DNA of 64,000 nucleotides. Origin: Eledone cirrhosa. Taxonomy: Eukaryota. Positions 1-17,570 of this stretch are shown piece after piece. Under the pieces are notes generated by a model. That model saw nothing but the letters and a program-made list of their open reading frames with translations, did not search any database and was not told the origin of the DNA. Position 1 is the stretch's first letter. Each line of letters begins with the position of its first letter. The position numbers were made by a program, and so were the translations under genes. The stretch is taken from assembly GCA_964016885.1 (NCBI GenBank), contig OZ024742.1:276396001-276460000 (forward strand), written 5' to 3'.

Positions 1-179
1 TATTTACCACAACATTGCTTTTAACTGCTTCTATGGTGACTTCTGTGATACAATACACAAAGTACATACATTCTCAACACACACATATATATATCTTCTT
101 TTAACATCTTCCTCTAATAACTATCTTCTAAAACCCTATAACTGTCAATTTTAACAGCTGGACCCTATAACTGTCAATT

Positions 180-870
180 TTAACAGCTTGGGTATGTTGA
201 GTGTGGTCTTTCTTCCCCCCATTCATTCTCTACATTCATCAGTATCTCATAGTAACCTTTCCAGGCCCCTTTCTTTTGAGCACCAGTGGTGTTAAATCCA
301 CCAATGTCATTTCTATCAGACTTTTCCTTAACAACATCCCAATTCATACTGACACACTGCCTTGCAATATGAAACACTTCACGTCTCTGATCCTCACGTC
401 ACAAGGCATTGGCAAATTTCCTTTCTTCAGCCTCTTTCCGAGTTATGAATACCTGTTGTTTAGCTTCTCTCTTAGCTACTTGGTCTCACCCTCTGTCAGA
501 CTGGTGCTTTACTCTAGCCACAAGTCTTATCAGTAGTTCACAAAAGGTTGCCACATAAAAATTTTCAATTGTCTTTTAATGTCATATGAATCTTGCCTCT
601 TTTCATCAAATGCATCCCATAAGGCCTTTTTAAACCTATATTTCACAGAAAGGTCCTTTAGCTTCCAAACCTTTCATCCCCATATTTTCCTGTGTATCTT
701 GTTCTGTCTTATGTTCATCCTGATGTCACTAATAACTAACGGGGAAGGCCTTAGTATTTATTAATGTCCATCTATTTCGCTGTCTTACAAGTAAGAAAGC
801 AATCTGGCTTGTGTTTTTGCCTGATTGGTATGTGATCACATGGCTAGCCAGTTTCCTGAAAGCTGTATTA
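180..870 (-). mobile_element. Degraded RTE-clade LINE fragment (endonuclease to linker region)
   Basis: Minus-strand peptide 'ELTICNTAFRKLASHVITYQSGKNTSQIAFLLVRQR' resembles the APE endonuclease C-terminus; multiple stops. Confidence 0.7.
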
Positions 871-1162
871 CAAATGGTTAGTTCATTTGCATTACAGAAT
901 TTCAGGAGGCTCACTTCCTCCACCAACACTAGAGAGGTTGTCTTACTGGACTCAAGAGTCCTCTCCACCCTATATCACTTTATATTCAGAGTCTACTCTC
1001 CTAGATAGGTTATCTTCACTATGGCTTACAGTGTCCACATCTGTTCTGTGTAGTCATTTTGAATTGGAGTCACTGCATTCCTTGACATGTTGCCTTCATT
1101 ACGGCTTACAGAGCCCATGTCTGCCCCATGCAGTTGTTTTTGATTGGAGTCACTGCTCCGCT

Positions 1163-1194
<32 letters not shown>

Positions 1195-1199
1195 CATCC

Positions 1200-1945
1200 T
1201 CCTCATCATCATTTTACATTCATTTTTCCATGCTCACATGGGTTGGATGTGTCATTTCAAGTACAATCCCAGCCCACTCCCACCCACACATAGCATTCCT
1301 TCATCTCCTCTGTGTTTTGAAATCAGCTCTAACCACTTCTGCCCAGATTTTCCTTAGTTTTTCTCCACTACAACTTCCTTCCACTAGGATCTATTCGCAC
1401 TTCATACCTAACAATAATCATCCATATGCATCACGTCCATACTATCCATCTTCTCTCTTGCACACAGCATTTGATTTCTCTTATACCCAGTTTTTCTTTC
1501 AACTTACCTGTGTCTCATTATTCATGCACACTACATATCCAACAAAGTATGCACACTTCATTTCTCTCCCACCTTTACTTATCCTCTGCATTCACTACTC
1601 ATGTTTTACTTCTATCCAGCATTGCTCTTCTTACGCAGACATTGTACAATCTACTTTTCACTCATGGGGAGAAACCCTTTGTTGTCAACAAGGGTAATAG
1701 CTTTTTTTTCCATTCTTTTCTTATTCTAGCTACAATGCTTTCAGAGCAACCCCCGCACTGCTAATTAGGCTACCTAGATAACAAAAACTATCAACTACCT
1801 CTATAGTACCTTCCCAGGATTGGAAAACGTTTATTTTACTGGTTCTCTTGCTACCAACTATCCTTGTGCATCTGTCACATACAAAGTTTACTTTTTTTAT
1901 TAGCCCGTCGGCTATCCTACTACACCTCTTGTGTACCCATTATGT
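1200..1945 (-). mobile_element. Degraded RTE LINE 3' fragment
   Basis: Homologous to the better-preserved copies at 6460-7757 and 36908-39015 (KGFS/GRLY/WVHKRC segments) and ends in a (CAT)n tail. Confidence 0.7.
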
Positions 1946-2084
1946 AAGCAGCAGTTATGTTCGTTCTCTAAGGCTTTTGACCATCTAAGCACAAATAAGT
2001 GCCGGACACCCAGATTTCTTCATGTGCCTGGAGACTTTCCTGGATACATTCTGATTATTAGTATTAGGGAGTAAATGGAATAGT

Positions 2085-2460
2085 TGTGCATATATCGAGC
2101 AATGGCATTAGTTGGAATGAATTCCATACAGGGTGGATCATGTGAAGGATGCCATCTCCAACCCCTCAACCCGACCTTCCTATCCATGAAAACCAGTCAG
2201 CTTTGACCTTCCTAGAAAGCAATGGATGTTCCTTAATCAGGTCCCCACCACACATGCTAGGACAGGCCATCATCTCCATCGATGGACAATGAAAGACAGC
2301 CCAGCAAGTGACTGTGGGGACCCTGACCAGACAGTGCTGCAGGTTGTTCATTTTCCCAGCGGCCTGGAGGAAATCTATAATACTACAAATGATGCCTTAG
2401 TCTGGCTCACCAATCTCGATCTGTCTCTCTAACAATTTTGCATGTCATACAAGAAAAATT
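2085..2460 (+). mobile_element. Vingi/Ingi-like LINE 3' end
   Basis: Peptide 'RKQWMFLNQVPTTHARTGHHLHRWTMKDSPASDCGDPDQT...WLTNLDLSL*' matches the Vingi C-terminal pattern, followed by a short 'CATAC' plus A-rich tail. Confidence 0.6.
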
Positions 2461-2557
2461 AGAATAATACCTTAAATGCATACCAGGATTGAGTAAGGAT
2501 AGTGTTTAGGAGAGATTGCAAAAATCTTTTAAATCTGTTTAAATCTCTCTCTCTCTT

Positions 2558-2562
2558 GTATA

Positions 2563-2633
<71 letters not shown>
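2558..2633. repeat. (TA)n/(TG)n microsatellite
   Basis: Directly visible dinucleotide run. Confidence 0.95.
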
Positions 2634-2637
<4 letters not shown>

Positions 2638-2983
2638 GTCATCTTCATCAATATTCATTTTTCTATGTTGGCATGGGTTGGATGAAAGTTTTGGGGGCAG
2701 AATTCTACAGCTGGATGCACTTACTGATGCCAGCATTCACTTATATTACAAGTGCAATGAGCTTTCTTACACTTTTTGTTTACCCAAATTTACTCCAAAT
2801 TTACTCACAATGCAGTATTTTCACTGCTACCAAAACTTGCAAAGTCTTTTCTGGAAGCCTCCTTTATATTAACTATCAACTCCCCAAAATATCTAATGCT
2901 TTTTACAACTACTTCTTTACAATACCATACTGACTCTACTCTAATTTCTTTCTTTTCACACCCACACACCTACCAACTATTGT

Positions 2984-3145
2984 TTAACCCTTTAGCATTT
3001 AAAGCGGCCATATCCGACCAGAATTCTCTCACGTCTTTCTGTTCAAACCAGCTGTAACCGGCCGCTCATACCCACATTAAGGTATTGTTCTCAAAATAAA
3101 TAACATCAAAATCTCGTAGATTCGATATTATGTGAGATAATTGTG
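2984..3145 (+). mobile_element. piggyBac-type MITE family A, partial copy
   Basis: Starts TTAA-CCCTTTAGCATTTA and aligns with the full copy at 32451-32652. Confidence 0.75.
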
Positions 3146-3649
3146 AAAGAGAGAGAGAGAGATTTTTCTCTGCTGTACGAATAATTTCTTTTATAAAATA
3201 TGGGAAAATGGAGTTAACTCTCTTGCAACAAATAATCGCATGTTACAGTTGATTGTTATATGACAGCTGTAAATGGATTATTAAAAAGTATAACATTCGC
3301 TAAACGTTTTTAGGAAAAGTATTTTAATACTTTCATTGTACGTAACAACTATTTTAGATTCTTATCAGTAGCATAGCTAGATTATGCCATCTAGTGCAGC
3401 TCTTGATATTGTTCCTCCCCCACACACACTCATAGTAAAATATATACAACAGACCTAAAAATGTTGCCCCTATAAAAGTGTCAACAGGTGTAGACCACCT
3501 CCTTTAGTTACGATACTGGCTTTTATCTTTCTCAAAGTCAGTAAAAATGTATGCAAAGGGGAACAACTCTGACGGGCAGTATTGACAGTTTTTATATACA
3601 GTTGAAGAGTGAAAAACCGCGCCTATATACATCAAAACATAACGTAAAA

Positions 3650-4300
3650 TATAGGCCGGCAAATACGGTAAATTATTGATTTCTTTATTAGCCACAAGGG
3701 CGCAACAAGAAAGGGGACAATACAAAGACATGCCGGGGATTTTACATACAGTCGTGTAAAAAATATAAAAACAAACAATTTCAACAATCGAAATCCCCAA
3801 TAGGGGGGAGGCGCCACAAATGGGTTGTTTAATACCCCGTCGATAGAACAACCCTCAACTCAAGGAGCGTGTTGTGCAAGTGCTCCTTTCTTCCTTTTGC
3901 TCTCTTCCTCAACCTACAGGCTTATAAACAGAGAAGGCCCAATCACTCGGGCCATTTTCGCTTCATTCACCCACCTTTCAGTAAATTTACTGGGGTGCAG
4001 TGCCTCTCTCTCCACCCTGATTCTCCTTCTAAAGTGATACTTAAAGAATGGAATCAATTGTTGTCCGGAGAGAAAGGCATCTGTCCTCAGTCCTCTCAAC
4101 CTCGTCCACCATATAACTTCTTTCACCATAGCCACCGTACAGAGGAAAACCGCCTCTCTTTCGTTTTTGAAAGAGTCTGGCGGTTTGATCCTTACTATGG
4201 ATTCGGCAGTCAACTGTATTTGTCCCATACGCGACAGCAGTTGTTCTGCATAGTTCCACAGGTCGCTTACGCCCGGGCAGTGTACAATTGCGTGCAGAAC
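3650..4300 (-). mobile_element. L1/Tx1-clade LINE 3' end (ORF2 C-terminus and 3' UTR)
   Basis: ORF 3914-4228 'VAMVKEVIWWTR...FFKYHFRRRIRVERE...FTERWV' resembles Tx1/L1 ORF2 C-termini; downstream UTR ends near AATAAA. Confidence 0.6.
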
Positions 4301-4307
4301 TGTTTCA

Positions 4308-4500
4308 ATAAATTATTATTAATAATTTAGCGTCAAAAAGCGTGAAAAAATATATATTGCCATGAAAAAAGCCATAAAAAATTGCGGAAGATATTTACAA
4401 TTCCGCGAATATGCGGTGATTTCCACTATAAATTATTAGTTAGGTTCTAAGGAAAATTCTGCGACTAACCGGGAACGTGAATGACGGGATTACACTGTAA
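4308..4500 (-). mobile_element. Tigger/pogo-like MITE fragment
   Basis: Inverted homolog of 33028-33180; terminates ...ACACTG-TA. Confidence 0.55.
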
Positions 4501-4931
4501 TCAACAAGTACAAAAAGAAGGATTGAAAAATCCTTCAGTATCAAGAATTACTTTTCTATAAATTTAAATGGTTTATCTGTAACCCCGGCTCCGTTTTTTG
4601 AAAAAAGAATAGTTAGCTAGTGAGTCAGATGTCAGATCGTCCGAGTTTAAACGGGAAAAAAAACTAAAAAAAAAGAAAAAAATACCCACTAAAGAAATCT
4701 CCCAGGTTGGGATACTACGCTCACCCCATTCTGCTTTCGGAGAAAAAGTGGATTGCAAACACACAATAAACTTTAATTATTACCAATTTTATTTAGTGTT
4801 ATTAGTGGTTAACGTTCAAACAAACTTCCTTTAAATATATATATATATATATATATATACATTATGAAGAGAGAAGAAACATTTAGATATAATTAGTAAT
4901 AAAATGTATCATACCTAAACTGTTCCTAAAT

Positions 4932-5019
4932 TCCTCGACTACGTAGTTTCGTGGCATAAACAAAAACAATATATCAAAGATATAGAGTCCTTGCGAGGTC
5001 TGCCGACTTATCAAGAGGA
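4932..5019 (-). ncRNA. Minimal type I hammerhead ribozyme (U3:A8 variant), inverted copy
   Basis: Reverse complement of 5517-5604 within the inverted arm. Confidence 0.7.
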
Positions 5020-5516
5020 TACCTCATTTTACTAGTCTCAAGAACGCGTCTACACGACGTGAGAAAGAATCCCAAAAGGCGGAGGGGGAGATAGTCACGC
5101 GATATAACGGTCGAGAAACAGAGCTAAGCCTCCTATAACCACGAAAAAAATACCACGGAGGCGGAGGGGGCATTCATATCGAGGCCGTTGGGTGCGGATG
5201 CATTCATGTATATATGTGTGTGTCCGCATGTATCTGTGTGTTTCTAAATGTATTAATAACTCCCTCTGGTCGAGCAATCTTTGAAGTGTGGGGACAACTG
5301 GAAAGCTTCCATTACTCATACTTCTCGCCTTCTTCACTACCTCTTCTACGGCCTCGATATGAATGCCCCCTCCGCCTCCGTGGTATTTTTTTCGTGGTTA
5401 TAGGAGGCTTAGCTCTGTTTCTCGACCGTTATATCGCGTGACTATCTCCCCCTCCGCCTTTTGGGATTCTTTCTCACGTCGTGTAGACGCGTTCTTGAGA
5501 CTAGTAAAATGAGGTA

Positions 5517-5604
5517 TCCTCTTGATAAGTCGGCAGACCTCGCAAGGACTCTATATCTTTGATATATTGTTTTTGTTTATGCCACGAAACTACGTAGTCG
5601 AGGA
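5517..5604 (+). ncRNA. Minimal type I hammerhead ribozyme (U3:A8 variant)
   Basis: TCCTC-TTGATAA-GTCGGCA..44 nt..TGCCAC-GAAA-C-TACGTA-G-TC-GAGGA: stem I, core, stem II, GAAA, 1-bp stem III with palindromic loop, GUC cleavage triplet (C5599). Confidence 0.72.
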
Positions 5605-5838
5605 ATTTAGGAACAGTTTAGGTATGATACATTTTATTACTAATTATATCTAAATGTTTCTTCTCTCTTCATAATGTATTTTTAACTCTGATACTGGTTC
5701 AGTCTGGTTCAAACTGAATTGGTCTGTCCCAGTCATTCATTGAGCAACATCGGTGAAGTTGGCACCCTTAACTCACAGTTGGGTGCGGATGCATTCATGT
5801 ATATATGTGTGTGTCCGCATGTATCTGTGTGTTTCTAA

Positions 5839-5871
<33 letters not shown>

Positions 5872-5872
<1 letters not shown>

Positions 5873-6200
5873 CAAATTATAAAATAAGAAGAAGTAATAG
5901 ACACAGATATATACCTATTTTTTCTTCAAAGTCCCGACTGTACAGTTTCGCTGATCAGTTTGCAACCATTGCACATTATAGATGGACAATATTGTTGTGA
6001 GGCACACCAGCTTTTCAAGGAACTCCTCAGGGAAAGGACACTTTCCAGACACGTTCGTAGCAAGTGAGAAAATCTCAAAAGGCGGAGGGAGAAATTACCA
6101 CGTGATACACCGGTCAAGAGAGGGAACTGAATCCCTTGTAGGAAGTGAAAAATATCTTAGAAGGCAAAGAGAGAAATTAATACATGATACAGACGTTACA
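5872..6200 (-). mobile_element. Second, diverged Penelope-like pseudo-LTR fragment
   Basis: Shares the GC-rich block (AAAGGCGGAGGG-GA...CACG-GATA...CGGTC-AGA) with 5075-5120, carries a hammerhead and abuts (TA)n; a related piece lies at about 7870-7910. Confidence 0.65.
5930..6024 (-). ncRNA. Minimal type I hammerhead ribozyme (U3:A8 variant), second family
   Basis: Minus strand reads AGTTCC-TTGAAAA-GCTGGT..50 nt..ATCAGC-GAAA-C-TGTACA-G-TC-GGGACT; cleavage predicted after C at 5936. Confidence 0.75.
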
Positions 6201-6284
6201 GGCGGGTAGTAAGGTGGACTGAAAGCGATAATAGTGTTTGCTTAAGAAGCAGTTACTATACTTTTGGGTTAACTCAACCGTAAA

Positions 6285-6390
6285 TATTCACTTCCCTGAC
6301 ATTTTTGTATTATTCTATGTACTATACATGCATCTTTGACGAGTTGTAGTGCACCTGAGCACTTTACACAATAATTTCATTATTATTATG
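6285..6390 (+). mobile_element. CR1-like LINE 3' tail
   Basis: Matches 29940-30045 (GAGTTG-AGTGCACCTGAGCACT..ACACAATA..TTTCATTATTAT). Confidence 0.7.
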
Positions 6391-6459
6391 TAAGGGAGTT
6401 TGAGACAATATCATAATGAGAGACACACATATACATGTGTATACATACATACATACGTA

Positions 6460-7757
6460 TCATCATCATCATCTTCGTTTAACGTCCATCTTCCACGCTA
6501 GCATGGGTTAGACAGGAGTTGTCCCACTTGAGGCAAGGTTGGTCGGGTGACCATGTCTCACTCATATAGGACTATCTGGCAGGTTTTCTACGGCTGGATG
6601 CCCTTCCTAACACCAACCACATTTACAATGTGGACTGGGAACTTTTTACCATGTTACCTAAATGGCCACATTACAGCGTGGACTGTGTTTTTTTGTCATG
6701 ACACCTACATGATCTCGATCTCATCTCATTATTTGAACTGAATGTTGTAGTACCAACTTTACAGAGGTGGTGTTGGTGGGAGTGGGAGGATAGAGTAGGG
6801 GTAGTGGATTGGGTGTATATTTGGTTAAGAGGTGCCTACTGACTGTAGGTTTCGCTTTGTACATAGGCAAGGCAGGTCTTCTGTATTACTGCGTAGCGCC
6901 AAAGATCTCAGTCCAGTGAGATTGTCTTAGGGAGGTGCAAGTGTGTAAGGTCAGAATTTATCAAATCGTCTCAGGTTTTTCTGGGTCTGCCTACTATGTA
7001 GCTACCATCTATTTTGATCGCCCTGCACTTTTTTATACAGCTGTTAGTCTTTCATGCGCATCACGTGACCATACCAACATAGTCTTCTCTCAAGTAAACA
7101 GCATCTGATCCCTCTTATTCCTAATTTCTCACTTAGTTCATTTATGCTTTGCCATTCACGTATATTTCTATTACATATCCAACGGAACATGCATGCTTCG
7201 TTCCTTTCCAGTCTGCGCAGGTCCTCTGCATGCAATGCCCATGTCTCACTGCCATGTAGCATTGCTGGTCGTATACAGTCATCATACAATCTGCCTTTCA
7301 TTTTTAGAGAGAAACCTTTTGTGGCCAACAGCGGTATAAACTCTCTGAACTTTTTCCATCCCGTTCTGACTCTGCCTACTGTACTTTCAGAGCACCCTCC
7401 ACCACTGCTGATTTTGTCACCCAGGTAACGGAAAGTGTCCACTATTTCTATAGAACCATCTGAGTGATAGAAGGAGCTAGTATCCTGTGGGCACTTGCTA
7501 CTTATTGCATTTGAGCATCGGCCACATATAAAATCTACGTTCTTAGATAGTTTACCTATGATCCCACTACATCTTTTATGTACCCATAGTTTGCATTTGG
7601 GACATAAAATGGAATTTCTACCTACTCCTTTTCTACTCACTGAGCATGGCCATTTCCCTGAGGACACCTGTGCCCTATTTTCCTTTCTACAAACTAGAAC
7701 TTTAGTCTCAGACAAGTTAACTTTAAGGCCTTTTGATTCTAGGCCATGCTTCGTATA
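6460..7757 (-). mobile_element. RTE-clade LINE, 5'-truncated
   Basis: ORF 7044-7907 contains 'GLKVNLSETKVLV', a Cys-rich insert, 'FRYLGDKIS', 'MLHGSETWAL' and 'WYGHVMRM'; the 3' UTR ends in (TGA)n. Closely related to 36908-38175. Confidence 0.9.
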
Positions 7758-8054
7758 TATATATATTTTCACAAGCATGTGAGTGTGTGTGGTGTCGACC
7801 TTAACCAGTTTTGCTCTATGACTTTGAGAGACAAAATAATCGAAATAATTAAATTGACTCAATATCAGAGCTCTACAATAAATTATAAAATAAGAAGTAA
7901 TAGACATATATATATATATAAATTTATATATATAAGAAAATGCTGTTTTTTTTATTAAAAAAAAAACAAAAGAAAAAGATGAGATGTCCTACACGGGTGA
8001 AAGTATAAGGAAAAGAAATCTGTGCCTATGTTAGAAATCATTATTAATAGTAGA

Positions 8055-8275
8055 AAGACCGTGGATTGGCAGTATCAGTAGAGCATTGGAGATCATGCTT
8101 CGCAACATAGTATTACGGTCCTTTACGTTCTGAATTCAAATCCCACCAAGGTTAGCTTTGCCTTACAGGGTGGATAAAATAAAACACCAATAGTGAACTG
8201 GGGTTGATTTAATCGACTTGCACTTCCCCTTCAAATTGCTGGCCTTGTGCCTAAAGTAGAAACAATTATTATTAG
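8055..8275 (+). mobile_element. tRNA-derived SINE (octopod-type)
   Basis: A-box-like TGGCAGTATCAGTAG, B-box-like TTCAAATCC, body 'TTTGCCTT..GATAAAATAA..GATTTAATCGACT' and (ATT)n tail; many copies in the window. Confidence 0.75.
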
Positions 8276-9949
8276 TAGTATAGCTATCTTTGTAACAACA
8301 TAGTTGAATTAAATGTATTACAGTATTTAATTTCATCAATTTCAGTTTGCTTGGCCTTTCCTAATTTTGGAGTCAAGAGAATAGCTTCTAGTAAAGTATT
8401 AGAATAAATTCAATTGAGTGTATCTCTTCCTTGTGAAGGTGTATGGCCTAGTGGTTATGGTGTTGAACTTACAGTCATAATGTTATAGGTTGGATTCTTG
8501 GATGAAATGATGCAGTGTTCTTGAGCAAAAAAAAAACACTATCATGTCCAGGAAAGAGTCATGTACTCTTAGTCACTTAACACCAATGAAAAATGAAATC
8601 AGGGATAAATACCTACCTGATGAATCTGGTGGCTTGAAATATACTTCAACTTTTAACGAATATCTCTCCTTCATGGCAATTGTTTGAAGACCAAGACAAT
8701 GAAAGACATTAAGAGTCTATCATTTTAGTTATTTTTTATAGTAATTTTATTCACATTTCATCAATGAATTCTCCTTATATAAATTCTATATTAATTATCA
8801 TTTTAAACCAAAAATATCTAGAAATCAATGTAAAACAATAAATTCAAGGGAGAGAATATAAGGCTTTCAAAATTCATCTACGATTTATTTCCCTTACATG
8901 ATGTTCCTGCATTACAGACACATTTTAAGATATATTTAAGTAAATGCACAGGATTTTAACCAGATTTTAATCATGCATTTACAATAGCTGTAATCATTCA
9001 GTTTTTATATTGACTTCGACTTCTTTCTTCATTTGAAAAAATATTGATGGAATGAGCCCAAACTTATTAAATTAGATTACCCATTTCAACAAACATTTTA
9101 AAGCTATTTTCTTTGCTAATGTAGAGGTTAGCGTAGATGTGTGCATGTGTAGATAAGTCATCTAATGATCTATGAATTTATATATATGCATGTAAGTCTT
9201 TCTGTGCACACGTGTATGAGCGCGCACACACACACGTATCAGTAGTTGCAAACCAATATATGTTTGTGTGCATTCGTTAATCAATGTGTATGTAAAGATC
9301 CCCATAACATAATAAACTAAATGTAGTGATACTAATTATATCTACAATATAGCTGAGACAAAATATCTCATGAGAGTGTTCTGCATACTATATAAAAATA
9401 TACAAGGGTTTCACATTATAGTGAGTTTTTGTCAACTAATTACCTGCACCAGTGCTGACTCTTCAGGGGTGCCTGGAGTTATAAGTGAGGCAGCAGCCAA
9501 AATTATATTACAAGGGGACATTTAGGTGGATGAGAAAATGTTTACATCTTCATCAGTTAAGTAAAGATAAGTGACGAGCAACAAGCTGACAAATTTGATT
9601 ATATCTTATAAGATTAAAAAGAATTTTGTTTCTAACAATGTTTAGTTTTAAAAAATGTAAGGATGCCCCAGTGTGTTATTAATAGCAGTGTATTACATAC
9701 ACTAAGATGCAAAGATCTTTGGTGTATATTTGATATGTTGGTAGCATGGATTTGTCAATCAAAAGGGCGCTTGACACACCAACATTGGAAAATCTGTCCA
9801 CTCTGGCATGAAGTTTTCCTTGATGCTTTTTATTTCAATTAGTAATTTCTTTCATGTGATTAAATAGCTAATATCAAAATGAATTGTCTTTTATTAGGTA
9901 CATATGAGCAACAGCCTAGCATCGTTTTTATCTTTAACAGATGGCAGGT

Positions 9950-10215
9950 CATTCTTCTTCTTTACCCACTTAATCCTGAGAGGGTCGTAGGGGCAGAGTC
10001 CTTAAAAACTCGTTCCAGCAGGTCCTGTCAGAAGCAACCGTCTCCAACCGATCCAGCTGGATCCCCAAGTGTGACCAGCCAAGTTCATGAATGTTACCCT
10101 ACCATCTTGCTCAGGGTCTACCCCTGGGTCTTTTGCCAGTTGTTTTTATCCATAAAATCTGTCCAGCAATTCTTGCCTGAGACATTCTAACCACATGCCC
10201 ATAGTATAGGAGCTG
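9950..10215 (-). mobile_element. RTE-like LINE 3' end (second family)
   Basis: Homologous to 14600-14800 and 22526-22770 ('RPRGRPRARWLD..ELGWSRLGI'). Confidence 0.65.
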
Positions 10216-10821
10216 TCATTCAAGATACCTAATTCCCATTTTTAATAGTCTATTTTTGTTTCCTAAAATTCCAGGCATCTTGACATCACTTTAACTAAAA
10301 ATAGATAAGTTTGTTCCTCAGAAGAGTGGATGATCCTTTCAGCCACAGGTCAGTTAATCACAACATGACTTGAATTGATGAGTTTTAGGAAAAATTGTAT
10401 AATCAAGCATATGTAAACCTGAATTTATGTAGAGTTCTAATGAGAGCCATCCATTTTGAGTGTTCGAAGACAATAAGATTTTCATTCACATATGGAAGAT
10501 AGCAACTTCAAACCAAAGAGAGTAACTAAAATATTTAAATCAAAGTTTATTTCCATGCAATTTTTAAAAACTTTCGATCAGATTTTAAATAAAATATCTT
10601 GATTTTAAACCTACTTAAACTGCTGTTTTATCACAATTTGTAATAACTCATTTAAAAAAATACAAATCACATTATTCAATTGTAATGAAATTTCCAGTAC
10701 TTATCTAGAAAAAAAAAATGCAGAATTTTTTTTAAACAGGTTTTTTTTCATATAGACAAAATTTATTGGATAATGTGCCTGAAAATTGTATACAATAATG
10801 TTCATTCTTATTATTGTTGTT

Positions 10822-11055
10822 AGGACGGTGGATTGGCAGTATCAGTAGAGAGTTGGACGCCATGCTTTGCAGCATAGAGTTACAGCCCTTTGTGGTCTGG
10901 ATTCAAATTCCACCGAGGTTAACTTTGCCTTTCATCCTTATGGGTTAGAAAAAATAAAGCACTAGTAACGTACTGGGGTCGATTTAATCGACTTTCCCCT
11001 CCCCCCAAATTACTGGCCTTGTGCCTATACTACAAATCATTATTACGATTATTAT
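10822..11055 (+). mobile_element. tRNA-derived SINE
   Basis: Same family as 8055-8275. Confidence 0.75.
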
Positions 11056-11107
11056 TACTGTTCAATTCTCATATCTGGTGGGAAAAGAATTCAGTAATAG
11101 TGAGACC

Positions 11108-12995
11108 TCATCATCATCATCACCGTTTTACGTCTCTTCTTCCACGCTAGCATGGGTTAGACGGGTTGTCCTGTTGTGGGCAGTGTCCGGTCGGCTGACC
11201 TTGTCTTGCTCATACGGTAACTGATTCTGGCTTGATTTCTACAGATGGATGCCCTTCCTAACAGCAACGTCATTTACAGTGAGTGCTGGATGCTTTTTTT
11301 CCGTGGCGCCTACACGTCCACTTTACAGTGTGGGCTGGGTGCTTTTTTTTGCCGTGGCACCTCCACGACCACTTTACAGTGGGAGGGTGTGGGGGCATCT
11401 TGTCTATATGCTTCAGCTTGTACCTGTGGGGGGGTCAGGTCTTCTGTATTACTGCGTGACGCCAGAGGTCACGGTCGTGTGTCATCACCTTTGAGAGGTG
11501 TAATTGGGCAAGGTCGGCTTTTATCACCTCATCCCAGGTCTTCTTGGGTCTCCCCACTCCGCGGTTTCCATCGACTTCTAGTGCTCTGCACCTTTTTATG
11601 CAGCTGTCATCCTTCATATGCATCACATGTCCATACCAACGCAACCGCCTCTCTTGCACACAGCATTTGATTCCTCTTATGCTCAGTCTCTCTCTCAATT
11701 CATTTATGCTTTGTCGTTCGCGTATATTACTATTACACATCCATCGGAGCATGCAGGCTTCGTTTCTTTCTAATCTACGCAAGTCTTCCACGGTCAGCGC
11801 CCAAGTCTCACTACCATGTAACATTGCTGTTCGTATACACGCATCATTCAGTCTGCCTTTCATTTTGATGGTAAAGCCTTTTGCAGCTAGCAGTGGCAGT
11901 AGCTCCCTGAACTTCTTCCATCCCATTCTTATCCTAGTTATTGTACTTTCTGAACACCCACCTCCGCTGCTAATTCGGTCACCTAGGTAGCAGAAGCTGT
12001 CTACTGTTTCTACAGAGCCCTCTCAGAGTTTGGTGGTGCTTGTTTGCTGCTTGCTGTCCCAGTGTAGCTGCTACATGTGAAGCCTACATTCTTAGTTAAG
12101 CTTCCTGAGATCCCGCTACATCTCTTGTGTACCCATTGTTTGCATTTGGGGCAAAGAATGGAGTTCCGATCTACACCTTTCCTACATACTGAGCAAGGCC
12201 ATTTCCCTGAGAGGATCTGGGTTCTGTTTTCTCGTTACTTACAAGGACCTTAGTCTTTGAGACCCTTTCTTTCTAGTCCCTGCTTCCAAGTTTGGAATTT
12301 CTTCTCTAGTTCTACCATAGATTCAGCTATAAGTGCGAGGTCATCTGCATACAGGAGTTCCCATGGGCATCCGGTCTTAAACTCCTCCGTTATTGCCTGC
12401 AGGACTATGATGAACAGGAGAGGGCTAAGAATAGAGCCATGGTGGACACCGACCTGTACGCTAAATTCCTCGCTATACTCATTGCTAATCCTAACTTTGC
12501 TGACTGCTCCCCTATACATGGCTTGTACAGCTTTCACAAGCCCTTCATCTACTCCGAGTTTTCTAAGAGCCTATAGCACAGGGAACTCTGTCAAAGGCTT
12601 TCTCGAGATCAACGAATGCCAGGTAGAGTGGCTTACTTTTAGCTAGGTACTTTTCCTGTAACTGCCTCACAAGGAAGAGGGCATCAGTGGTGCCTCTTCC
12701 TGGCACAAACCCAAATTGCATCTTATCTAGTTTCACTCGGTCCCTAATCAACTGTGCTATAACTCTTTGTTACTTTCATTACCTGGTCCATCAGCTTTAT
12801 ACCTCTATAGTTTCCTCTATCTAGTGCATCACCTTTACCTTTGTAGCAGTTGACAATGATGCTACTGCACCAATCCTTTGGTATGACACCTTCTAGTATT
12901 ACCTGGTTAACAATACGTGTGGTTATAGTGTGACCTACCAACCCAAATGCCTTCAGCATCTCGGCAGCTATACCCGATGGACCGGTTGCCTTCCG
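11108..12995 (-). mobile_element. RTE-clade LINE RT region with frameshifts
   Basis: Motifs 'YKGKGDALDRGNYRGIKL', 'QFGFVPGRGTTDA', 'FVDLEKAFDRVP', 'GVHHGSILSPLLF', 'LLYADDLALIA' and 'RWYGHV'; (CAT)n tail. Confidence 0.92.
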
Positions 12996-16665: not shown

Positions 16666-16779
16666 TAGTTGAAAAAGAGGATAAAGTTCTCTGCAAATTC
16701 AAGATTATAAGTAAAAAGTAAAACTGGAAAAGCACAGGGGTATTTTGGAGACACATTTCACACACAATTAAAAAAACAA

Positions 16780-17570
16780 CTGGAAAAGGTACCTCGATGA
16801 TTGCTTTATCTTTTGGCAGGAACACCTTGATATACTCACTAAATTCAAAAAACAACATTCGATTCACAATGGAGTTTAATACCAAGGAACTAGCCTTTTT
16901 AGATATTATAATCTCAAAAACAGACGGGAGAATAGAAACAAACATTTTCTATATACCCATGGACACCAAACAGTACCTTCTATTTACATCAAGTAACCCA
17001 AAACACACGAAATTGAACACTCCTTTTAATCTAGCAAAAAGAATATGCACAACAGTATCAAACCCGATCAAATGTGTGCAAAGCCTGGATGAACTGAAAA
17101 ATATCCAAAGAGCCTTCCCAATTGGCATAATCACCAACAGAATAAAAAGGGCAAAACATAGATATCCAAGAGCTAAGGAAAACAAAAAACAAAACTAGGG
17201 AAAATGTTTTACTCTATGTGTCAACTTTCATCCCCAGAAATATCAAAATGTTTGACCACCTGCACAAAAACTTCCCTATTCTATAGAAAGGTGAAAAGAT
17301 GAATAACATTTTAGAAACACACCAAATCATCAACAGCCCAAAGCACTAAAACATATTCTTACTGGGGCAAAAACTTACAAACAAATCCCCAACCCCACTG
17401 TTACAAAATACGCAAGAACAAACTGTGGTACTTGCTTATATCTAATTGAAGTACCCGAATTAAAAATTTCCTATTCTACCCATACTTAGACGCTTTCACT
17501 CAACAGAGAATAAATAAAAAACAAAAAACAATTCATTAACAAATATAAGCCATAATTAAATATGTAATTG
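16780..17570 (+). mobile_element. Penelope-like element (Neptune-type) RT thumb/linker remnant
   Basis: 'LAFLDIIISKTDGRIETNIFYIPMDTKQYLLFTSSNPKHTKLNTPFNLAKRICTTVS' and a downstream 'RTNCGTCLYL' Cys motif. Confidence 0.75.

Follow-up and report, generated by a model that had tools for sequence, protein, structure and literature searches.

Minimal type I hammerhead ribozymes in which core positions 3 and 8 form a compensated pair have been described before. Natural U3/A8 covariation, in "several" examples and with in vitro activity cited, is reported in the available part of Perreault et al. (2011, PMC3088659), and about 1,300 motifs in the Penelope-like elements (PLEs) of Schistosoma were recovered with a descriptor specific to U3-A8, in a study that also described the palindromic helix III and pairs of motifs on opposite strands (Cervera and de la Pena 2014, PMC4209133). 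The minimal motifs of Schistosoma do not cut as monomers and cut poorly as dimers (PMC4209133). Non-LTR retrozymes were defined by Cervera and de la Pena (2020, PMC7229834), with circles in coral, mussel and axolotl and with PLEs as likely helpers; this definition has the canonical contacts between loop 1 and loop 2, and minimal motifs are also admitted by Li, Clavereau and Pollet (2026, 10.64898/2026.07.22.740005). The latter argue that retrozymes are non-autonomous PLE derivatives with units of 51-972 bp, and among their Xenopus retrozyme dimers 8 of 9 did not cut and 1 of 9 did. Both a partnership with PLEs and a tandem cDNA templated by a circle have been proposed (PMC7229834; 10.64898/2026.07.22.740005). 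The layout of PLEs, with an inverted arm and a one-sided tail of 30-40 bp, is given together with the definition of Hydra in the available text of Craig et al. (2021, PMC8557442), where, as in 10.64898/2026.07.22.740005, the mechanism of PLE or retrozyme transposition is stated to be unresolved.

Like animal non-LTR retrozymes (PMC7229834; 10.64898/2026.07.22.740005), the repeat that we call family A is non-coding and arranged head to tail, has one type I hammerhead in each unit and a GC content below 50%, is dispersed as monomers to multimers, is predicted to form a self-paired circle and co-occurs with PLEs. It departs from them in length, its 591 bp being outside the 170-400 nt of PMC7229834 and inside the range of 10.64898/2026.07.22.740005, and in its ribozyme, which is a PLE-type minimal U3:A8 motif with a long helix II and not the canonical motif; circles have been detected for animal retrozymes (PMC7229834), whereas family A is known here from genome sequence alone. 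Family A further differs in its targeting of (TA)n and in having fixed ends at two sites, one for each inverted arm, features undescribed in the available parts of the retrozyme texts (PMC7229834; 10.64898/2026.07.22.740005). With the minimal hammerheads of PLEs (PMC4209133), among them the U3-A8 variant of Cercyon in Schistosoma and the type with a small palindromic helix III known from Drosophila, rotifers and shrimp, it shares the type I core, the G10.1-C11.1 pair, a helix I of 5-6 bp, the palindromic helix III, a bulge in helix II, U3-A8 covariation and opposite-strand motifs 100-700 bp apart; unlike them, it has no extra nucleotide between A9 and G10.1 and carries its motif on a protein-free unit, not in the pLTR of an RT/endonuclease ORF.

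The compensatory 3:8 pair is the same as in the variants of Perreault et al. (PMC3088659), but the "several" examples in the available part of that paper contrast with tens of thousands of copies here, near parity with C3:G8 under one pattern. As in PLEs of the Neptune and Hydra clades, so far as the available text of PMC8557442 describes them, the targets are microsatellites, the copies are tandem and inverted with 5' truncation, and the tail is at one end only; unlike in those PLEs, the unit has no protein and the tail measures 165 bp, against 30-40 bp in that text and tails of about 65 bp and 95 bp in the present genome's two autonomous PLE families. The same source describes non-autonomous Chlamys elements, e.g. 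MRC1, which resemble family A as PLE passengers whose insertions are multicopy and head-to-tail, and which differ from it in that most lack hammerheads and have 3' sequence in common with their partner, a homology not found here among the blastn matches listed. Among the papers listed in literature searches, none describes family A or two-site ends in retrozymes; motifs from cephalopods or of the U3:A8 type may be included in the supplements of PMC4209133 and of PMC8557442. The U3:A8 minimal hammerhead is a published type and not a new ribozyme class, contrary to the novelty implied in the preliminary description of this DNA; what is new is family A, an animal non-LTR retrozyme.

Three motifs and two insertions in the window

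The window (the whole 64-kb stretch of DNA analysed here) was scanned for type I minimal hammerheads with any Watson-Crick 3:8 pair, a stem I of at least 4, a stem II and a palindromic helix III. The output consisted of three motifs, all with a U3:A8 core and at the positions and with the stems originally proposed, plus an alternative register of the third; 100 dinucleotide shuffles gave none. In the motif at 5517-5604 (+), stem I is formed by 5517-5521/5600-5604, followed by the core UUGAUAA (5522-5528), a stem II at 5529-5535/5580-5585 with a bulged C5531, GAAA (5586-5589), the C-hexamer-G at 5590-5597, U5598 and C17, which is C5599 and after which the cut is predicted. The motif at 4932-5019 (-) is identical to it. 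The third, at 5930-6024 (-), belongs to a second subfamily, B, and has the core UUGAAAA with C17 at C5936, again followed by the predicted cut.

By their sequence, the motifs of A and B are type I hammerheads, and self-cleavage is predicted. The isolated motifs have folding energies that are ordinary in comparison with shuffles (z -1.49 for A and, for the B copy in the window, +0.08); stem II does not form in the minimum-energy fold of this B copy, and no loop 1 is evident in the subfamily alignment. What had been taken for a loop II of 44-50 nt is, by prediction, a covarying helix that extends helix II. Two copies are predicted to pair with each other through the 10-nt palindrome at 5589-5598 (-12.9 kcal/mol in a duplex prediction). 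G10.1 follows directly after A9 in family A, the extra nucleotide being absent, and the long-stem pattern with an extra base after A9 has 14 matches genome-wide against 23 in the control; this junction, as read from the predicted motif, rules out the strict min-HHR descriptor, not the palindromic helix III variants of PMC4209133. An Rfam scan of 1-12000 at E<=5 gave 11 weak miRNA/snoRNA matches and no hammerhead.

The supposition of three separate ribozymes does not survive a comparison of the arms, which yields two insertions, one of them counted twice. An inverted repeat of 337 nt and 99% identity (4852-5188/5348-5684) encloses the first two motifs, which by this comparison are carried by the two arms of one inverted family A insertion; what had been called a mirror is indeed the identical motif on the minus strand, and it represents the second arm of that one insertion. 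A (TA)n target tract (4835-4856) lies on the left. The inverted arm (4857-5188, -) corresponds to unit positions 5348-5679 with 100% identity, has its outer end at site S1 and overlaps the forward arm by 2 nt (5187-5188). The forward arm (5187-5844, +) amounts to 1.11 units, 5187-5253 repeating 5778-5844, and has its outer end at site S2; it includes one complete 591-bp non-coding unit (5254-5844, +) with 42% GC, in which the longest overlapping ATG frame is 75 aa. Each arm of this copy has one motif. The two fixed 3' ends, which would be priming sites, are S1 (5673-5679, +), 80 nt past the predicted cut, and S2 (5838-5844, +), 245 nt past it. In the next (TA)n tract (5845-5871), the right end of family A meets the 3' end of an older copy of subfamily B (5872-6281, -), which ends at its own S1 and whose unit measures about 559 bp in locus L061. 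Sequence comparison places the continuation of this copy, past a 112-bp interruption, at 6394-6417 (-), and a B segment running from S1 to S2 at 7757-7916 (-) is likely part of this insertion too, separated from the rest by a 1.3-kb repeat that came in later. The three motifs are clustered within 1.1 kb because the target of one inverted insertion was the (TA)n tail of an older B copy. Elsewhere in the window, 16778-17450 (+) holds a fragment of a Neptune-like PLE reading frame with 43-55% identity to the protein of locus L225.

The 591-bp unit, its subfamilies and the 3:8 pair

The carrier of the motif had been overlooked: it is a retrozyme unit of 591 bp, present in thousands of copies. The helix-III string of family A has 8,071 exact matches in the genome (control 0), and the full long-stem U3:A8 pattern has 7,799 (control 18). 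A search of the arm against its own 3.0-Gb genome gave 1,456 first-look candidates, the best 40 of which were scored and are full-length matches at 100% identity (rounded) on 11 contigs, many at 591-bp spacing. In 13 loci of 10 kb the unit forms head-to-tail arrays, often two arrays head-to-head, with up to about 8 units spaced by 587-595 bp, and consecutive units each have a complete type I hammerhead, as in the tandem arrangement of an animal non-LTR retrozyme. Neither in the window nor in the 13 loci is there an RT or GIY-YIG ORF in or beside the unit, only unrelated neighbouring fragments, and the unit gave no match to PLE proteins. It thus lacks the ORF with RT and GIY-YIG of an autonomous PLE and has the traits of a retrozyme: no protein, no evident LTR/PBS/PPT layout and a GC content under one half. 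On sequence grounds, family A is a non-coding non-LTR retrozyme with a PLE-type minimal motif, not an autonomous PLE. Folded as a predicted circle, the unit 5254-5844 reaches -173 kcal/mol in the sense orientation (z -6.1 against 60 shuffles) and -132 kcal/mol in the antisense. Contigs from two of four sequencing runs, of unspecified kind, contain the unit and a 591-nt go-back joint, which tandem DNA gives as well. Its thousands of near-identical copies make family A a recent mutagen of (TA)n tracts in this genome, probably that of an octopus.

Subfamilies A and B had been presented as two families. Their sequences differ and their pairing is kept, as was claimed, and they are nevertheless homologous subfamilies of one element, with 68% identity over 300 nt, flanks included. 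B copies across the genome are 86-94% identical to the one in the window, and an older B branch is present. At four B loci (L046, L049, L062, L064), an 81-bp sub-repeat upstream of the hammerhead is found in tandem up to about 10 times. In an alignment of seven representatives, which cover A and B and the older forms of both, 95.5% of cells are paired, against 38-58% in slid controls, and 8 of 22 pairs have changed on both sides (three in helix I, one in helix II, two in its extension and two in the palindrome). Helix I, with its three two-sided changes, is 94% paired; U3:A8 and GUC are found in 7/7, G10.1-C11.1 is G-C in 7/7, and the 10-nt palindromes of A and B are altered on both sides. The conservation of pairing through compensatory change across subfamilies, which the preliminary description had proposed for the stems and the palindrome, appears therefore supported, with the proviso that these are few events among seven related sequences, scored on a structure derived from the same sequences.

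A survey of 52 loci, i.e. those with the first 100 exact matches on contig C1, points the same way. Variants common to at least two loci affect 0/15 core, 3/28 stem and 149/512 other positions, and the three stem variants keep pairing (5520/5601 compensatory, 5534 wobble), in line with the expected conservation of core and pairing across genomic copies; 8 of the 15 core positions are fixed by the query string, and the remaining 0/7, set against a background of 29%, is not significant alone.

The stronger evidence of selection seems to come from the 3:8 pair itself, counted genome-wide with a short-stem pattern that excludes families A and B. There were 30,638 matches with U3:A8 (control 4,538), 36,875 with C3:G8 (control 6,568) and 73,741 with all four combinations (control 13,383), which leaves by subtraction 6,228 with a mismatched pair (control 2,277); the first 100 mismatched matches listed are mostly one string that lacks helix II and resembles LINE coding sequence. 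The genome-wide search allowing U3:A8 that had been recommended for this locus thus finds a pair that covaries. The U3:A8 matches come from many families that are unrelated to one another, differ in the sequence of helix II and mostly have a palindromic helix III; being near C3:G8 in number, these matches make U3:A8 a major type in this genome. The warning that standard searches miss such motifs holds for Rfam in the range scanned, and a search restricted to CUGANGA, hence to C3:G8, would lose roughly 45% of the short-stem hammerhead-like motifs here, not all of them. Among the loci seen, L201 (3802-5870) has a second U3:A8 tandem family with a 316-bp unit, 6.5 copies at 99% identity and a (TA)n end, and the helix III palindrome varies in its relatives (L202-L204, L212-L215); a 466-bp C3:G8 retrozyme array with 31 units and one inverted copy was found at G000:C1:5738326-5752444 (L227, L228).

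Insertion ends, autonomous PLEs and the probable route of spread

In all classifiable family A copies the end lies in (TA)n, either at 5679 (S1) or at 5844 (S2), two positions 165 nt apart. Among the 52 loci, 27 are inverted and 25 have a single orientation. The inverted loci combine S1 with S2 in 25 cases, S1 with S1 or S2 with S2 in none, and have one odd end in two; the others end at S1 (13), at S2 (10) or elsewhere (2). Under an independent choice of ends, 25 unlike pairs out of 25 would have a probability of about 3e-8. The two arms of an insertion disagree at 15 of 1,532 diagnostic sites (1.0%), against 8,850 of 38,654 (22.9%) between insertions, and 29 variants that are private to one locus (private among 65 loci only) are present in every unit of their own array, 17 of them in both arms; those found in a single unit (65) or in some units (9) are as expected from later mutation. 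Both arms are longer than one unit in 6 of the 25 S1+S2 insertions. Both ends of the insertion are inside (TA)n, where a target-site duplication would be illegible, and the footprint as a whole is that of a PLE: a microsatellite target, a partial tandem, an inverted 5'-truncated arm and a one-sided tail.

Of 50 inner ends, none falls at 5595-5605, and a position no more than 30 nt from the priming site of the other arm was found in 2 of 25 cases, about 5 being expected by chance. Matches lacking C17 before the downstream string number 37 genome-wide, and 19 of the 30 inspected are truncations; copies starting exactly at G5600 are rare and are estimated at about 23, against a rough expectation near 10 per position that carries no neighbouring-position control. 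In L1 twin priming on one linear RNA, inner ends are expected near the priming site of the other arm. We considered such a mechanism, which fits poorly, inner ends being seldom found there.

The two ends and the single haplotype suggest that both ends of the cut DNA are extended by a PLE enzyme on one RNA template, which is probably circular. The two-end footprint alone does not prove a circular template, nor does it separate a circle from a linear multimer, because autonomous PLEs of 4 kb leave the same footprint; the lean towards a circle comes only from the arm lengths, the positions of the inner ends and the homogeneous private haplotypes.

Two autonomous PLE families of this genome share the (TA)n two-end layout of family A, and the association with Penelope that had been suggested from the palindromic helix III of the minimal hammerheads is supported. 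The Neptune-type family C has intact 775-aa RVT_1+GIY-YIG frames and a U3:A8 motif, and of its nine inverted loci seven are S1+S2 and two ambiguous. A young intact copy at locus L225 (1108-5850; also L224, L226) has an ORF1 of about 410 aa, the 775-aa ORF2 and a short U3:A8 hammerhead at the 3' end. The 775-aa frame was found in at least 17 of the 150 matches listed, and the motif of the Neptune-type family accounts for about half of the first 100 short-stem matches with U3:A8. The other family, represented by locus L138 (2115-4211) and relatives, is abundant and mostly decayed (78,189 first-look candidates), has a C3:G8 motif and is S1+S2 in three of four inverted loci. A Neptune identity was ruled out for it by its DKT and CxCX5C motifs, which make it Hydra-type; a Pfam search of its protein gave no match.

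We consider it probable that family A, a 591-bp non-LTR retrozyme with U3:A8 hammerheads, spreads as a non-autonomous passenger of PLEs by way of the predicted cutting and circles. From the observed unit, arrays, copy number, covariation, (TA)n targets, ends and haplotypes, we infer the remaining steps as follows. An array would give a multimeric transcript in which neighbouring motifs pair through the 10-nt palindrome to form helix III; cleavage after C5599 would release 591-nt monomers, which a host ligase would join into circles. The GIY-YIG endonuclease of a PLE would cut a (TA)n tract, and its reverse transcriptase would prime from both DNA ends on the same template, once at S1 and once at S2; each cDNA would extend over a variable distance, often more than one round of the circle, and the two 5' ends would join head to head. 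Extension from a single end would leave a plain array ending at S1 or S2, and subfamily B would be an older relative that moved in the same way. A reading as double rolling-circle integration, in which a dimeric hammerhead provides one 591-nt circle, PLE-cut ends prime at S1 and S2, 165 nt apart, and the "tail" of PLEs is the distance between two such priming sites, is proposed tentatively: we believe it almost as much as we doubt it.

The same element could use the same PLE partner with an uncut linear multimer, transcribed from existing arrays, as template, the hammerhead cutting rarely or trimming read-through transcripts and the arrays being remade by tandem duplication of DNA. Nearly all copies are intact across the cut site, the in vitro activity of this class of hammerheads is low (PMC4209133; 10.64898/2026.07.22.740005), unequal crossover is the preferred origin of arrays in 10.64898/2026.07.22.740005, a multimer route is described in the available part of the review PMC6765202, and similar insertions would be expected if a homogeneous array were transcribed into a multimer that stays uncut. 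We nonetheless hold this unlikely: one linear template needs inner ends beside the other arm's priming site, as seen in just 2 of 25; the many distinct haplotypes, each filling a whole two-armed array, would need repeated amplification of a single unit; and the strong fold of the sense-strand circle (see the energies and z score above, -173 against -132 kcal/mol and -6.1) speaks against it.

It is considerably less probable that the motif is a non-catalytic structural signal bound by the PLE protein, or a device for RNA dimerisation that serves the two DNA ends. Such a role agrees with genomic ends that do not pile up at the cut site, with the non-cleavage roles left possible in PMC4209133 and with the mobility of Naiad PLEs that lack canonical hammerheads, as described in the available text of PMC8557442, but it leaves unaccounted for the catalytic positions, the 3:8 pair and the NUH triplet, all kept across A, B and many unrelated families, and the in vitro activity of U3:A8 cores that the available part of PMC3088659 cites. 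It is hardly credible that the motifs are three separate ribozymes selected by the host for a role at this locus, or that a satellite matches the pattern by chance. Clustering within 1.1 kb, and nothing more, favours it, and this is accounted for by the inverted insertion into the (TA)n tail of the older copy; the thousands of dispersed, near-identical copies have retroposon ends, and chance is excluded by the shuffles (0/100) and by the 7,799 matches against 18 in the control.

Being young and abundant, family A offers a footprint that can be counted (fixed ends at two sites, one for each arm, a single haplotype, arms of more than a unit), together with candidate intact enzymes, for testing the transposition of PLEs and retrozymes. 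If double rolling-circle integration holds, the one-sided tail of all PLEs would be the distance between two protein-positioned priming sites, and the element would provide a 0.6-kb substrate for reconstituting PLE transposition; the genome that holds it also has an intact Neptune-type PLE.

As to which PLE may be the partner, no homology of the unit to the ends of the Neptune-type family C or of the Hydra-type family was found among the blastn matches listed. The U3:A8 core that they have in common would favour the Neptune-type family. A short ACTCC...GTCGAG-like motif, spotted by eye and without statistics, is found just 3' of S2 of family A (window 5254-5280), at the sites of B and at S1 of the Hydra-type family (L013, L080). 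It is a candidate for a protein-positioning signal, and its occurrence after the priming sites gives a weak hint that A and B may use the Hydra-type enzyme.
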